A stretch of 24,249 bases of DNA from a virus (lineage: Duplodnaviria; Caudoviricetes): positions 1 through 24,249 of IMG/VR virus record IMGVR_UViG_3300006484_001348. One strand, written 5' to 3'. Below are positions 6,930-19,731 of this stretch, one piece after another. The translations under genes and the position numbers were made by a program. The notes under the pieces were generated by a model. That model was not told the DNA's origin. It did not search any database and saw only the letters and a program-made list of their open reading frames with translations. Position 1 is the stretch's first letter, and every line of letters starts with the position of its first letter.

Positions 6930-7370
6930 TTAAAATAAATCCAATAATAATTCTAATTTAGCTCTAATAATTTTACTGCTAAATGAAGTCTTTACTGCTC
7001 TATGTAATGGTTTGGGCCAGTGGTCGTAACCAACCCAGGCATATCCATCATGTTCATCATTCAGTACAGGTATAAATTCTCTATCAACAATCAATAGATA
7101 GGTGTTATACTGAAATTGTAGATCATTACTGATAAACAATTCTAAAGGAATTATTTTTTTTATAGTAGGCATTTTGCCTATTTCTTCATGTATTTCTCGT
7201 ATAAGAGCATCATACGGAGTACTGTCCGACGGTTCTTTTTTACCGCCAACTAGTCCCCATGTGCCTGCGGTTTTAGACTGTGTTCTTGATAAAAATAAAA
7301 AGCGTTTGGTGTCTTTGGCAAGAAATAACCCACCGCTACATATTACTTGATTTAAAGAATCATTCTCCAT
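6930..7370 (-). CDS. NUDIX hydrolase
   Basis: WGLVGGKKEPSDSTPYDALIREIHEEIG Nudix box (slightly variant); LNDEHDGYAW C-terminal motif. Confidence 0.9.
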   Translation of the reverse strand: MENDSLNQVICSGGLFLAKDTKRFLFLSRTQSKTAGTWGLVGGKKEPSDSTPYDALIREIHEEIGKMPTIKKIIPLELFISNDLQFQYNTYLLIVDREFIPVLNDEHDGYAWVGYDHWPKPLHRAVKTSFSSKIIRAKLELLLDLF

Positions 7371-8749
7371 AATGCTAAATTATAAACGCCTTCGTAGCTC
7401 TTACTCCATGCTTTGTTTTCCCACTTATACTGTGTGCTTGTATATGAGTTAGTTATATATATTACACTTGTAACAGTAGCAGAACTGAATACAATATTCC
7501 ATCTAGAACCGTTCCACGCTATGATGTCGTTAGCAAATGCCTGAAAATCTGTACCATCGGCATTTTGCCATGCGACCGGTCCCTGAAACCCTGTGAGTCC
7601 AAATAATGGATCGTTGTTGATATCTTCTAATATTAAATATCTTGTATTTGTTGCAACTGTTTGGGGATTAAAAGTTTCAGGATTAACTACAGCATCAACT
7701 GTTCCTCTACCTGCAATAATTGTATTACTTGGTACGGTGTCTGTGTTTATGTTCAATCTCATAGCAAAGTCGTCACTGGGATCTAAGCTCATATAAGCAA
7801 TTACTTCATTGCCTCCTGATTGAGCAAATCTTAATTCACTTAACCCTGCTCTAAATTTTCCAGGGTATAGATCTAATATTTTATGCCACGATGCTGTATT
7901 TTTTGGTGCAGTAATATCAATGTTTTCACCAACTCCGTTGCTATGTATTAGCCTTGCAGTATTATTTAAAACTAATAAATCATAATTTCCAGGAGTTATT
8001 GTAATTGTTGCATCTGGAGAAATATTTGAAAATACATCAGCAGCATCTTCTACATTATATAGACTAGAAATTGTTCCTTGTGCATTACCTGCAAATATAT
8101 TAGATATAATTTTAGTAATGACTCCTAGTTTTTTTACTTTAGCAGGAGGAGTAATCCATACAGGCGTATCAAACGTCATAGTCATGATATCTATATCTTC
8201 TGTAACTCCTTGGGGAATTTGACGACTAGTCCAGCTTACATCATCTAATCTAACAGTACTTAAACTGGTCCAATCGAGATAATTATCTGTAGTTTGTATT
8301 TCAAAACTTGGAGTAAAGAAAATTGCTATTTGTTCAAATATTTGTAATTTTTGATCGTTACTGGTAGTCCATATATCTGCATTTAACGTTAATTTATACG
8401 GACTTGGCATAATACGTTCAATGGTATAGTTATTACCTTTGGTATTCAGGTATTGTTGATTTTCAACGTCCCTTTCTATTATATTAATTTTACTAATAAA
8501 AGTTGGATCTTGTAGACGTTCTCTATCAAATTCTAATTCTTTAATATAGCAAGAAATAAATGGAGCACTGGGAATTGTGTTCTCACTATTTTTTCTTAGT
8601 ATTTGTCCAACTTGTCTAGTCATGTCTCCATAACGGACAGGCACCTGTACTAAATTACCCTTAGAATCTTTGTAGGCAAAATTACTAAGTATTTGAATAA
8701 ATTGTGACAAATATCTACGTATTTGCCCATCATAAAACCAGTCGATAAT
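7352..8749 (-). CDS. Tail terminator / sheath stabiliser (T4 gp15-like) with C-terminal extension; start codon uncertain
   Basis: QVPVRYGD, MPSPYKLTLNADIWT and QKLQIFEQIAIFFTPS match gp15-family motifs. The frame is open upstream of the track's TTG (8710) through I-I-D-W-F-Y-D-G-Q-I-R-R-Y to the TAA at 8764-8762, with no in-frame ATG or GTG. The start given here is the ATT at 8749 (inference). Confidence 0.8.
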   Translation of the reverse strand: MIDWFYDGQIRRYLSQFIQILSNFAYKDSKGNLVQVPVRYGDMTRQVGQILRKNSENTIPSAPFISCYIKELEFDRERLQDPTFISKINIIERDVENQQYLNTKGNNYTIERIMPSPYKLTLNADIWTTSNDQKLQIFEQIAIFFTPSFEIQTTDNYLDWTSLSTVRLDDVSWTSRQIPQGVTEDIDIMTMTFDTPVWITPPAKVKKLGVITKIISNIFAGNAQGTISSLYNVEDAADVFSNISPDATITITPGNYDLLVLNNTARLIHSNGVGENIDITAPKNTASWHKILDLYPGKFRAGLSELRFAQSGGNEVIAYMSLDPSDDFAMRLNINTDTVPSNTIIAGRGTVDAVVNPETFNPQTVATNTRYLILEDINNDPLFGLTGFQGPVAWQNADGTDFQAFANDIIAWNGSRWNIVFSSATVTSVIYITNSYTSTQYKWENKAWSKSYEGVYNLALWRMIL

Positions 8750-8777
8750 AGCACATCGGTATTAAACCGAAGCCTCC
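8744..8777 (-). promoter_or_regulatory. Putative hairpin-bridged ribosome binding site for the gp15-like gene
   Basis: Minus strand reads GGAGG(8777-8773)-CT-[TCGGT TTAAT ACCGA](8770-8756)-TGTGCT-ATT-ATC-GAC-TGG; the 5-bp stem carries the endonuclease stop codon in its loop. Confidence 0.5.
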
Positions 8778-9271
8778 CGTTCTACCCATCGTTTTTTACC
8801 ATCTATCATTTTTAAAGTTTTTCCTTTTAATGAGCTTGTTCCGCCCTTGTTAGGATGAGATTTCCCCTTCATAGGACCACCATCTTTCCTGGTCCATCCT
8901 CGATCAGTTCCTTTGAGTCTTCTAAGAACCCTTGCTGCCTTTTGTGATTCACTCATTTTCTTAATACTTTCAGGGTGGTGTGTTTTATTTCCGCCGCCAT
9001 TTCTAATATTAAATCCATTTGTGATACTATTAAATTTGGCAATATAGATTTCTTCTAATGTATTTAACTCATCTAACGTAGTTGCTTTATCTATTACTTC
9101 AAAAGTAAAAGCATCAACTCCGTATTTTTTCAAAGCATTATGAAAATGATATGTTTTTGGTGTATGTTTACTATCACAAATATGCTCTAGTCTACGTTGA
9201 TTAGGATCTTGTATAGTCTGCCCTATATAACATCTGCCTGTTTCTATATGAGTAAATTTGTAAATAACCAT
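8762..9271 (-). mobile_element. Free-standing GIY-YIG homing endonuclease (Seg-like) with NUMOD3-type DNA-binding tail
   Basis: MVIYKFT...CYIGQT (GIY-YIG), RRLEH, E...I..FNS..NGFN catalytic module; HHPESIKKMSESQK and PMKGKSH NUMOD3-like motifs; inserted between gp14-like and gp15-like genes. Confidence 0.9.
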
Positions 9272-9272
9272 A

Positions 9273-10472
9273 TTATAAATCTGCCCTTGGTTTCAATACT
9301 TGACTCAATGCCTGTCGTTCTGGAACAACTACACCAGCAATTGTGCCAGTTGTTTCGTTGTTAACAAAACCAGCTTTTAATTTTCTTCTTACTAGTAACG
9401 GATTATCTGTTTGACTTTCTCCCAACGTACTTGTAGTCATTCTTACATTATCTTCATGTTTAATCCAATGTATTCCATCATATCTAAATAATCTATTAGG
9501 CAAATAATCAGTTCTTAAGAAAAAATCACCAAGTGTGGGGTTTGCAGGAAATATAATACCAAATCCATAAGGAATACCATTTGGCGGGATTCCATCTCCA
9601 GTTAAATATCCAATATAATAATTTTTACCAGGCGTATTTAAAACAGCCGATGCATCTAAATATGATGATCCTATTGTAATATCATTATTATCAATTGTGA
9701 CATCAGACACAGATACTAATCCTGTTCCAGTATTGCTAATTGGAACAATATAAAATTGATCTGTTTGATATCCACTGGCTTCAACATCTGCCTGTGCTTG
9801 TTGAATAATTTGATTATTAATTTCTATATTTTTACTATATGATGATAGTAAATCACGTAATGTACTACCATCTTCTGCTCCAGAATCTGCATCAAGAATT
9901 TCTTTAAATTCCTGACTATCAACTAAAGGTGAACATTTTGCTCTAACTAAATGTGGATACCAAGTTTGACTATATCCACTGGCAGGACGTGTAACCTCTG
10001 AAACAACATAAAATCTTCTTAGTGCAACGAGGCTGTCATCCAATGCATATTCATCTTTTTGATGTGGTAATTCTATAACATCGCCTGCCATAATTTTTCT
10101 ACCTAACGCATCAAAACTACTACGTAGGTGAAAGTTAATCATAATATTATCATTCTGAAGAAATAATCCAAATTGACTCAAATTAAAATCTAAATCCTGC
10201 AGAGTATATATTCCACGTATAACATATATATCAGGGTCGTAATGACGATCTCTATTTTCCATGAACAACACATCTTGTATTCCTAATTCCGGAATAGGAT
10301 TAGAATTATTAGGTTGTGTAGGAGTACTATTCCCTGCTTCGGGATTAATGGGGCCAAGATATTTGTGTATATAAACATCTGTACCACCAACTTGAAATTC
10401 TTCGTTAATTACACGATCTATAAATCTAAAATCATTGCCCTTTTCGGGCTTGTACATGGAAAGTCTTGGCAT
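9273..10472 (-). CDS. Neck / head-closure protein (T4 gp14-like), extended
   Basis: LSQFGLFLQND, GDVIELPH and GGTDVYIHKY motifs resemble gp14-family proteins; position between gp13-like and gp15-like genes. Confidence 0.65.
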   Translation of the reverse strand: MPRLSMYKPEKGNDFRFIDRVINEEFQVGGTDVYIHKYLGPINPEAGNSTPTQPNNSNPIPELGIQDVLFMENRDRHYDPDIYVIRGIYTLQDLDFNLSQFGLFLQNDNIMINFHLRSSFDALGRKIMAGDVIELPHQKDEYALDDSLVALRRFYVVSEVTRPASGYSQTWYPHLVRAKCSPLVDSQEFKEILDADSGAEDGSTLRDLLSSYSKNIEINNQIIQQAQADVEASGYQTDQFYIVPISNTGTGLVSVSDVTIDNNDITIGSSYLDASAVLNTPGKNYYIGYLTGDGIPPNGIPYGFGIIFPANPTLGDFFLRTDYLPNRLFRYDGIHWIKHEDNVRMTTSTLGESQTDNPLLVRRKLKAGFVNNETTGTIAGVVVPERQALSQVLKPRADL

Positions 10473-17747: not shown

Positions 17748-18470
17748 ATGCCAAAAATTACAGAATTACCAATTATACCAGCTATTATCGATGCTACAAC
17801 TTTTGTGGTAGTTAATAACGGTCTAACACGCAGATTTCCCTATCAAGATTTATCTAGTCAAATATTGGCAAACGTACCAATAGCAACACAAGGTACTTTT
17901 GGTACGCAAGGACTCGAAGGCCCCCAGGGAGTCAGGGGGTTGCAAGGGTTATCTGGACAGGGTACTCAGGGGGTGTTAGGTGCTCAAGGTAGCTCCACAG
18001 GTACACAAGGAATACAAGGCGCAAACGCTGGGCAAGGCGTTCAAGGTGTTACTGGTACTGCTACTCAAGGCGTCACTGGTTCAGGTAGTTCATATGCTAG
18101 AAGTACAGCAGCGGGTGCAACTGCAAATATTGCAAATAATGCAACTGGTAATATTTCAATTACAGGATTTAAATCTTATTCATTATTTAAAGTGCAAACA
18201 AGTGCAGCAGCCTGGGTTCGACTATATCTAACTGATGCAGCAAGAACCAACGACAATACAAGAATACAAACCACAGACCCTACTCCGGGATCAGGTGTAA
18301 TAGCCGAGGTAATTACAACAGGAGCACAAACACAATTAATGACGCCCGCTATATTTGGATTCAACGATGATACAACACCGGGCAATACAATATATCTAGC
18401 AATAACTAACCTAAGCGGATCAACTGCTTCAATAACAGTTACATTAACACTATTACGACTGGAAACATAA
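17748..18470 (+). CDS. Short collagen-like fibre protein
   Basis: N-terminal MPKITELP, central G-X-Q triplets (QGTFGTQGLEGPQGVRGLQG...), Thr-rich beta-type C-terminal domain. Confidence 0.8.
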   Translation: MPKITELPIIPAIIDATTFVVVNNGLTRRFPYQDLSSQILANVPIATQGTFGTQGLEGPQGVRGLQGLSGQGTQGVLGAQGSSTGTQGIQGANAGQGVQGVTGTATQGVTGSGSSYARSTAAGATANIANNATGNISITGFKSYSLFKVQTSAAAWVRLYLTDAARTNDNTRIQTTDPTPGSGVIAEVITTGAQTQLMTPAIFGFNDDTTPGNTIYLAITNLSGSTASITVTLTLLRLET

Positions 18471-18471
18471 A

Positions 18472-19731
18472 ATGTCCGAGATAGATGAAATTATTGAATC
18501 TACCAATTTAAAAACATTTGATATTCTTGATATTAATCCACTATTTCGTATAGGAGATTATGTAGGACTTACACCACCGGAAATTGCAATTGCGTATAAC
18601 ATGCCTGCAAGTACTGGAGCAGGAGTTAAGGTTGGTATTATTGCACCGTTAGGGGGCGGTTTTTTGCAAAGTGATCTTGATAAAACATTTGATGATTTAA
18701 AATACAGTGGATTAATTGCCTCAGGTACTGCTGCACCTACAATCAACCAAGTACTACTAGACGGAACATCTGGTACATTTACCGGTGCTGGTGCAGATAT
18801 GGAAAATACACTTGATATCTATGCAATAGCCACATTAGTTCCTGCTGCTAATATTACTATATATTTTAGTGGTAGTTTTGTAACCGCAATTAATAGAGCA
18901 GTATCAGACGGCTGTCATGTTCTTAGTATAAGTTATACATATTCCATTGGTGAGCCTGGCTCGAGTACTATAGCAGCCGTAGAAACCGCATTGTCAACGG
19001 CATCCGCTGCTAAGGTTGCAATTTGTGTATCATCCGGAGATAGCGGATCAACATTCTCAGGATTATCAACTGTAAAAGTAGCATATCCATCATCTAGTCC
19101 AAATGTTATTTCTGTAGGTGGAACAAAACTTATATTAAATTCAAATAAAACAAGACAGACCGAAACTGATGATAATAGAGATCTTGATTTTTCAGCAACC
19201 TGGGGTGGAGGCGGCGGTATAAGTGGATATTTTTCATTACCTAGTTGGCAATCTGGATTATACTACACGCCTATTAATAGTAGTACTATTGGATCATCAA
19301 CAGCATTAACTATGAGAGGATTGCCCGATATTTCGGGTCCAATGAATGGGCATTTATGTTATTTTAATGGATCTATAGTATCAGTTGGTGGTACTAGTGC
19401 GTCAGCACCTGTAATGGCAGGTATGCTGACAAGAATACAAGCGTTAACAGGTAATCAACGTTCGTCTGCTGAATATAATACATTATTTTATAAACATAAA
19501 ACATCATTTTATGACATAATTGTTGGAAGTAATAACACTCTTATTACTAGTGGATACGTTGGTACTACAGATTGGGATCCTGTTACTGGACTAGGCCCCC
19601 CTGTAGGAAACTCAGTCCACCAATATTTAAAAAATGGATTACGACCAATTTCGGGCAAGATATTTCCTAATACTAAGTTTGATCGTAGGCCCACATCTGG
19701 ACAAATGTGGCCCCGTACTAAAACATTATGA
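18472..19731 (+). CDS. Peptidase S53 (sedolisin/kumamolisin-like serine-carboxyl protease), catalytic domain only
   Basis: E-x-x-L-D (ENTLD), SSGDSG oxyanion Asp, YPSSSPNVISVGGT, GGGGIS, RGLPDIS, GGTSASAP catalytic Ser, FYDI..GSN and WDPVTGLG Ca-site motif. Confidence 0.9.
   Translation: MSEIDEIIESTNLKTFDILDINPLFRIGDYVGLTPPEIAIAYNMPASTGAGVKVGIIAPLGGGFLQSDLDKTFDDLKYSGLIASGTAAPTINQVLLDGTSGTFTGAGADMENTLDIYAIATLVPAANITIYFSGSFVTAINRAVSDGCHVLSISYTYSIGEPGSSTIAAVETALSTASAAKVAICVSSGDSGSTFSGLSTVKVAYPSSSPNVISVGGTKLILNSNKTRQTETDDNRDLDFSATWGGGGGISGYFSLPSWQSGLYYTPINSSTIGSSTALTMRGLPDISGPMNGHLCYFNGSIVSVGGTSASAPVMAGMLTRIQALTGNQRSSAEYNTLFYKHKTSFYDIIVGSNNTLITSGYVGTTDWDPVTGLGPPVGNSVHQYLKNGLRPISGKIFPNTKFDRRPTSGQMWPRTKTL

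Follow-up and report, generated by a model that had tools for sequence, protein, structure and literature searches.

A homing endonuclease gene at the start of a phage gp15 gene carries a predicted split, non-AUG translation start

How is the gene of a core virion protein translated when a homing endonuclease gene has taken its initiator codon? The question is raised by the IMG/VR virus record IMGVR_UViG_3300006484_001348 (Duplodnaviria; Caudoviricetes), of which we analysed positions 1 to 24,249 (24,249 nucleotides (nt), referred to as the window). This 24-kb fragment derives from a large myovirus that is uncultured, and it carries neck, sheath, tube and terminase-like genes (mostly named by eye). 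On its minus strand, an open reading frame (ORF) for a GIY-YIG endonuclease lies between a virion structural gene and the gene of a gp15-family protein. Comparison with related loci indicates that the insertion, whose 3' end combines a Shine-Dalgarno sequence (SD), a small hairpin and an ATH codon (ATA, ATC or ATT; AUH in RNA), is real, conserved and mobile. We consider it probable that gp15 is initiated at AUH from this split site, and in the window the AUC at 8746 is the most likely start.

Layout of the gp15 junction

The junction contains the following features (window coordinates).

9273..10472, minus strand: upstream virion structural gene, 399 aa, PHROG 11591 'virion structural protein', positional gp14 equivalent
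9271-9269, minus strand: captured ATG, the gp15 start in empty alleles (locus L003 and a contig from run X7) and the endonuclease start in the window
8744..9268, minus strand: 525-nt mobile insert, limits uncertain by 1 nt, defined from L003 and the X7 contig
8762..9271, minus strand: free-standing GIY-YIG ORF, 169 aa, open, stop TAA at 8764-8762
8773..8777, minus strand: SD sequence GGAGG within the final endonuclease codons, GAGG invariant in 31/31 aligned variants
8754..8772, minus strand: 19-nt hairpin (C-G, U.U, five pairs, loop UUAAU with the endonuclease stop), -5.8 kcal/mol
8747..8753, minus strand: 7-nt spacer, its final three bases an in-frame ATT and possible second start
8744..8746, minus strand: ATC, predicted gp15 initiation codon; ATH, TCG or ATG in this register in relatives
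8738..8740, minus strand: TGG codon, in place of which the empty sister has TAC; likely brought in with the element by co-conversion
7352..8746, minus strand: gp15-family tail terminator / sheath stabiliser, 464 codons counted from the ATC, PF16724

The upstream gene's stop codon (TAA, 9275-9273) lies 1 nt ahead of the captured ATG. A preliminary description of this DNA had named that gene gp14, which is a positional name only: the protein belongs to PHROG 11591 and has no match to T4 gp14. In phage PA5oct the gene order around this gene and gp15 agrees with the window. The description had read the junction itself correctly, i.e. the ATG after TAA-T opens a GIY-YIG ORF (PF01541 match, 169-aa frame), GGAGG, the stop-holding hairpin and ATT-ATC are in place, and gp15 is without in-frame ATG or GTG after the endonuclease TAA when its frame is read to TTG 8710. 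The endonuclease frame runs on past its TAA as YRCAII-DWFYDGQIRRYL, and TTG 8710-8708 is the first ATG, GTG or TTG there. The hairpin arms TCGGT/ACCGA lie at 8770-8766/8760-8756, and the C8772-G8754 pair lengthens the unit to 19 nt. An assembly error at the ATC (8746-8744) had been put forward as a possible refutation; a 13-kb contig from run X2, an independent study, covers 8300-9700 and is identical at 8744-8746, and a relative in X3 has ATT in this register.

The downstream protein is clearly of the gp15 family (PF16724, 84 bits vs a cut-off of 25; solved gp15 structures 4HUH, E 1.6e-05, and 3J2M, E 1.7e-05). The window aligns to T4 gp15 from T4 residue 4, so the FY...RRY segment is the conserved N-terminus of the family, as the preliminary description had it. 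In hairpin alleles F-Y-D-x-Q-x-R-R-Y is near-invariant while the synonymous codons vary freely, both being common. The PA5oct gp15 homologue is annotated with electrospray tandem mass spectrometry (ESI-MS/MS).

The inserted ORF is predicted to encode a free-standing GIY-YIG homing endonuclease (PF01541, 30.8 bits vs a cut-off of 22.6; PHROG homing endonuclease families also match), and it occupies 507 of the insert's 525 nt. Residues Y4, Y15, G17, R27, E73 and N88 are invariant in 10/10 aligned relatives, and we take the invariant Tyr, Arg, Glu and Asn to be catalytic-type residues by analogy with I-TevI. The endonuclease has no match in PDB, and its matches among cultured phages are all <60%. 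The ORF (8762-9271) looks mosaic, with a nuclease part nearest to L004/L055, which have a TCG module, and a C-terminus and module nearest to L050/L053.

Empty alleles and the insertion point

In locus L003, whose gp15 is 94% identical, the junction reads TAA-T-ATG-GAC-TAC-TTT, and only 2 of the first 60 gp15 bases differ from the window. In run X7, a DNA contig has 9268 joined to 8742; exactly 525 nt are absent from it, and it has 11 differences in 729 nt. These two empty alleles place the insertion directly behind the gp15 initiator codon, and L003, which keeps TAA-T-ATG-GAC, contradicts the possibility that endonuclease-free relatives also lack an ATG. The empty allele had been expected to read ATG-GAC-TGG-TTT; ATG-GAC was found, and TGG was not, the closest empty allele in IMG/VR being M-D-Y-F-Y (TAC). 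Since the TGG codon is common to the closest endonuclease-bearing relatives (L050 and L053) and missing from the empty sister, the mobile tract likely extends a few bases into gp15.

To describe junctions in general, we used a sample drawn by gp15 codons only, with no selection on start or hairpin (at least 120 loci, 116 junction types listed). Canonical starts are found in 109 of the 116 listed types, 95 of them overlapping the upstream stop, and the rest comprise four types with the hairpin module, two with SD-7nt-ATT and one out of frame. Among the matches listed, an SD core is missing within 45 nt in 102/109 canonical alleles.

Other junctions differ in what they hold. Runs X1, X2 and X7 also contain a less closely related phage whose TAATG junction is empty (joint 8737-9272); in X2 it matches 18 and 24 nt flanking the joint, a potential homing target. 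In L477 a short ORF (MQQFFYLDA*), some 570 nt upstream from the F codon of gp15, repeats the original N-terminus of gp15 in front of the endonuclease, and the insertion there thus lay several codons inside gp15; the replacement start of this gp15 is SD-7nt-ATT. Eight loci (L184, L196, L202, L244, L278, L491, L538 and L578) have other small ORFs (56-91 aa) at the gp15 junction, which do not match the window endonuclease and are coupled to canonical gp15 starts.

The SD-hairpin-ATH module in related viruses

We searched for the module with a codon-blind scan, in which the pattern holds the SD and the hairpin and the following sequence is unspecified. It returned 90 viral loci with 55 junction types, and all 90 loci precede gp15. 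The codon 7 nt past the 19-nt hairpin (the start register) is ATH in 41 types, TCG in 13 and ATG in one; two more codon-blind, SD-selected scans gave 32 hairpin types, none with ATG. A reverse scan, whose pattern consisted of ATH followed by gp15 codons and made no use of the SD, gave 70 types, four of which have an ATG three codons up. Among the 65 of these counted as ATH starts, the SD core lies 6-8 nt from ATH in 22 and 23-27 nt in 43, with none between and none lacking an SD core, a bimodality that agrees with the prediction for a looped-out hairpin. All scans pooled, which are partly pattern-selected, contain 590 loci with 328 junction types; hairpin types number 88, with ATH in the start register of 68, TCG in 18, ATG in two, and GTG, TTG, CTG or ACG in none. 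ATG holds the same start register in L084 and L061, and in L437 and L127, whose gp15 has a longer N-terminus, the codon is still 7 nt off the hairpin.

The SD of the module is strong: the window GGAGG duplex is -10.3 kcal/mol, vs -4.3 kcal/mol ahead of the captured ATG (these energies use an E. coli-type anti-SD, and that of the host may differ). Median duplex energies are -4.6 kcal/mol for ATG types (n=106), -8.35 for hairpin-less ATH types (n=22) and -11.3 for hairpin ATH types (n=43).

Support for the hairpin is comparative, since the local fold of the window alone is no better than shuffles (z -0.07 and -0.73). We aligned 31 of 40 distinct variants, namely those that fit the 19-nt register ungapped. 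Two-sided changes occur in 6 of 7 hairpin pairs (30 in all), and 85.3% of hairpin cells are paired, vs 74.9% in shuffles and 25-65% in slid controls. None of 500 shuffles reached the pairing or the covariation score, a control that is inflated by the relatedness of the variants. An alternative cUUCGg hairpin that would sequester the SD was rejected (-0.5 kcal/mol, not conserved).

In the pattern scans the module is seen at one site. Neither the 90 pattern hits nor nine GKRVW-GGAGGC types include a case at another gene (0/90 and 0/9). Scanning 1,110 long frames from G001 and G003, two related records, and from the window gave 12 candidates, of which 3 are gp15. A single hit in GTDB is a chance match, and no cultured phage searched has the module, their gp15 homologues being about 30-35% identical. 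The cassette had been called portable, which fits its passage between gp15 backgrounds and between endonuclease lineages at the gp15 site.

Two further kinds of start were noticed on the way. In L766 a 119-codon frame (minus strand, 5488) has AGGAG and ATA and 89 codons without canonical start, and may be a second non-AUG gene. Four junction types (L211/L459/L572, L488, L520 and L547) have a strong SD and an ATG, GTG or TTG one base out of frame; the start is followed by a T7 run before the gp15 F codon, and one extra T would give M-D/N-F-F-Y. A T8 run is found in 0/49 canonical types tallied, and a -1 frameshift or transcriptional slippage as another route to gp15, or a homopolymer error, are possible.

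Proposed initiation of gp15

We propose that the 19-nt hairpin would be looped out when the SD pairs with 16S rRNA, which would reduce the spacing from 26 to an effective 7 nt. fMet-tRNA would then decode AUC, with an expected output of a few percent of that of AUG or less, and gp15 would start without splicing. The replacement start of SD, hairpin and ATH had been proposed with ATT or ATC as its codon; the module stands, and ATC 8746, in the 7-nt register, is favoured over ATT 8749. In E. coli reporters, AUA, AUC and AUU yield 1-2% or 0.02-3% of AUG (10.1101/063800), and T4 gp15 forms one hexamer per virion (PMC12929629); a few-percent output may suffice for a six-copy virion protein. Ribosomes terminating in the loop would already sit on the SD and likely add reinitiation, and de novo initiation must also work.

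Evidence against AUH initiation and alternative explanations

Several observations weigh against this explanation. About 47 junction types have an AAGGAG-like SD 6-8 nt from ATH without hairpin (e.g. L312, L344, L353, L359, L460, L474, L514; an endonuclease is detected in 6 of the types, and several end in K-E-N-stop), and 17 endonuclease-bearing types have a canonical start without hairpin, so neither hairpin nor non-AUG codon is generally required. The hairpin itself is weak (median -3.9 kcal/mol; 29/42 better than 90% of shuffles), and its pair 7-23 is open in 16/31 variants. The alleles are related and spread by homing and several scans are pattern-selected, so the counts are not independent. 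In addition, a scan for TCG ahead of the gp15 motif (42 loci, 28 junction types) gave 1 ATG-TCG, 7 ATH-TCG and 20 A-TCG types, the latter with hairpin in 18 and without in 2. No in-frame ATG, GTG, TTG, ATH, CTG or ACG occurs within 12 codons upstream in 18/20 A-TCG types, and the other two have a distant ATA only, so simple near-cognate initiation does not account for them. TCG alleles co-occur with open endonucleases and intact gp15.

The A-TCG types may start at UCG with the position fixed by geometry, at a bulged AU(C)G, or at AUC followed by a +1 slip. This leads to a broader reading, tentative at present, that extends AUH initiation and does not exclude it: the module may be a positional ruler, in which the SD and the hairpin fix the P-site and the frame is nearly independent of the codon, so that AUH, UCG or bulged AU(C)G serve. 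The TCG in the start register of hairpin types (12 A-TCG and 6 ATH-TCG among 18/88) is what such a ruler would tolerate, as are the hairpin-less TCG types L716 and L720 beside ATH sisters of equal spacing (L336, L343) and the close gp15 pairs L130/L096 and L162/L141, which have ATC vs TCG at equal distance. In L094 an in-frame TGA lies upstream of the register, at a distance of three codons, and leaves no other in-frame entry, and TCG alleles retain FYD.Q.RRY. However, an AUC displaced from the frame by one base is retained in all 20 A-TCG types (18/20 hit UGA at codon 6 there), so AUC initiation with a +1 slip is possible, TCG may have a single origin and have spread by homing, and GTG, TTG, CTG and ACG are absent from the register (0/88).

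The remaining alternatives differ in how ribosomes would reach gp15. That it is made solely by reinitiation after termination at the loop stop or a nearby upstream stop, with free 30S unable to start, is rather unlikely in our view, although the loop stop is favoured: 30/36 remnants are in frame with it (see below), the SD sits 5 nt ahead of the last endonuclease sense codon, and PMC2268962 reports that an SD boosts reinitiation and that non-AUG reinitiation was achieved with mutant initiator tRNAs. Behind the upstream stop, eleven hairpin types lack an ATG (the stop is still near, and they may be coupled to it), L337 and L341 lack the loop stop, the endonuclease frame of L061 and L064 reads through the hairpin, and the in-frame bias fits equally well with avoidance of out-of-frame ribosomes over the start region. 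Termination-coupled reinitiation, as put forward earlier, is favoured and not required. An endonuclease-gp15 fusion made by loop-stop readthrough or a gene-60-like ribosome hop is improbable; in 80/88 hairpin types the loop stop shares the frame of gp15, GUU and AUH are one base apart, and the hairpin stop with SD recalls bypass cassettes (10.1101/2022.08.31.505936), but a second in-frame stop is present in 28/88 types and a +1 offset in 6, the take-off codon is matched by a landing codon in just 2/78 types, the module survives without upstream ORF (11 types), and hairpin-less SD-ATH and SD-hairpin-ATG alleles use the identical register. Even less probable is a start at TTG 8710 or a later codon, with the N-terminal motif as a relic. 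This TTG is the first canonical codon of the gp15 frame in the window, but it has no SD (-2.1 kcal/mol), ATG, GTG or TTG is missing at its position in 107/133 non-canonical types, 27 have no canonical codon inside 20 codons, and the residues that such a start would skip are near-invariant, show synonymous variation and align with T4 gp15 from its residue 4. A conserved, translated-looking N-terminus and a TTG without SD make a downstream start unlikely. Least credible is an intron whose splicing restores AUG-GAC: removal of 525 nt does restore the empty reading frame, but Rfam gives no intron hit for 8400-9600 at E<=5, the ORF leaves no room for a ribozyme, the 5' ends of inserts are not conserved, remnants of about 30-60 nt retain the module, many without ATG, and the low-coverage RNA-labelled runs X19 and X20, with fragments of relatives only, have no joint across the insert (weak evidence).

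We also looked for phage factors in five related records. None encodes IF3, and one (G003) encodes IF1. Initiator tRNAs have three G-C pairs in the anticodon stem adjoining the loop; none of the Ile and Met tRNAs of G001 and G003 has them, and no clear initiator for AUH or UCG codons was seen there. G003 also carries a transfer-messenger RNA and a CTA-anticodon tRNA beside its IF1. The relatives L737 and L760 carry 41 and 48 tRNAs, respectively, including a tRNA with a long variable arm, UAU anticodon and G1-U72 (L737:14500-14589, L760:12121-12212). A CAT-anticodon tRNA at L737:18439-18512 has a 1:72 mismatch and only the middle anticodon-stem G-C pair, and may be an unconventional initiator tRNA.

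Mobility and decay of the element

The endonuclease is optional at one fixed site, and it would home by cutting empty junctions. On a gp15 tree (FastTree, 251 leaves, 200 residues from F, shorter loci excluded), the hairpin state changes at least 42 times vs a shuffled mean of 68, and empty/occupied sister pairs are found (e.g. window/L003 and L012/L019). On a nuclease tree of 38 rows, hairpin-ATH, hairpin-TCG, SD-ATH and canonical types are interleaved (19/35 inner branches unresolved), so the 3' module seems to pass between nuclease lineages.

The remnants form a series of full ORFs, mini-ORFs (MEASV), bare modules after the upstream stop (11 types) and SD-7nt-ATH. The element would decay through in-frame deletion to mini-ORFs and then to the bare module; a final decay to hairpin-less SD-7nt-ATH scars is probable, with the order deduced from the series. 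By a manual tally, 36 distinct deletion remnants retain the ATG, and in 30 of them its frame runs to the loop stop (binomial P 9e-10 vs one third); a rough manual collapse leaves 22/28 (P 1e-6). Termination in the loop is thus favoured but dispensable, and its bias either feeds reinitiation or avoids out-of-frame ribosomes overrunning the start. In L346 and L392, the loop stop TAA is swapped for TGA.

As to why AUG is avoided, we consider it slightly more likely that the nuclease target is thereby lost than that dosage is tuned. ATG exactly three codons ahead of F is found in 1/55 endonuclease-bearing types, which alters the F codon, vs 101/112 unselected endonuclease-negative types (among the matches listed); the other 18 of the 19 canonical-start endonuclease types use GTG or altered spacing. 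Three things confound this comparison: some clades have natively longer N-termini, the scans selected on patterns, and the insertion already splits the junction. In the MobA system, self-nicking is blocked by the bypass insert (10.1101/2022.08.31.505936). For dosage, weaker starts go with stronger SDs, and the four out-of-frame types agree. A strict dosage rule, in which a strong SD never goes with ATG, was rejected, as 24 ATG types have an SD of <= -7 kcal/mol among 115 SD-selected types.

Comparison with known systems

The hairpins of the split ribosome binding sites (RBS) of T4 genes 38 and 25 cut the spacing from 22 to 5 nt and from 27 to 11 nt, respectively (PMC3014915). They are alike in that a hairpin between SD and start restores normal spacing in late structural genes, and they differ in their AUG codon and in a site for which no mobility is described (PMC3014915). 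The gp15 module has AUH or UCG as its codon, endonuclease codons form its SD and 5' arm, the loop holds the stop, and the module moves between phages; the AUG of a T4-type split RBS occurs in only 2/88 hairpin types and 1/55 codon-blind types.

MobA with the gene 60 bypass cassette is also a free-standing endonuclease with a translation signal, mobile and at a fixed core-gene site, and there too the signal outlives the nuclease and nucleases are exchanged (10.1101/2022.08.31.505936). MobA differs in being an HNH enzyme whose target gene is split internally and read by matched-codon hopping in elongation (10.1101/2022.08.31.505936), whereas the gp15 element is GIY-YIG, takes the initiator codon only, has no matched landing codon (2/78) and likely acts at initiation. 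The Seg-type endonucleases of T4-like phages share the GIY-YIG domain, the lack of an intron core, a start that abuts or overlaps the upstream stop, variable presence and decay (PMC2988022); their hairpins, however, control the endonuclease's own RBS, and none is described in the available part of that source as giving the downstream gene a split non-AUG start (PMC2988022). E. coli infC and pcnB also have an AUH initiation codon and low expected output, but they are chromosomal, vertically inherited and use AUU only (10.1101/063800), whereas gp15 alleles alternate between all three AUH codons and UCG, and this codon belongs to a mobile element.

In the literature searched (mostly open-access), we found no description of an endonuclease that takes an initiator codon and supplies a split non-AUG start. 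The single parts have precedent, and the combination of an endonuclease with a replacement start appears to be new. It may further be, and this we hold with reserve, that a mobile initiation element sets the frame by geometry and not by codon, so that a core phage protein starts at AUH or even UCG. If true, the element could erase its own target's ATG while the host gene survives. Taking a start codon and bringing a replacement would be a further endonuclease route into a highly conserved coding target, beside ribosome bypassing, split genes, inteins and introns. As a series of natural alleles (ATG, ATH, TCG; with or without hairpin; with or without upstream ORF), the junctions lend themselves to testing how far SD strength and mRNA structure can override IF3-dependent start selection. 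Gene callers likely truncate gp15 here, given ATH or TCG in the start register of 6/116 junction types (among the matches listed).

Other features of the window

A Sigma-70 promoter scan gave matches at chance level. Positions 1-1295 and 17748-18470 hold tail-fibre ORFs with collagen-like G-x-Q-G repeats, and positions 18472-19731 resemble a subtilase-type protease by eye.

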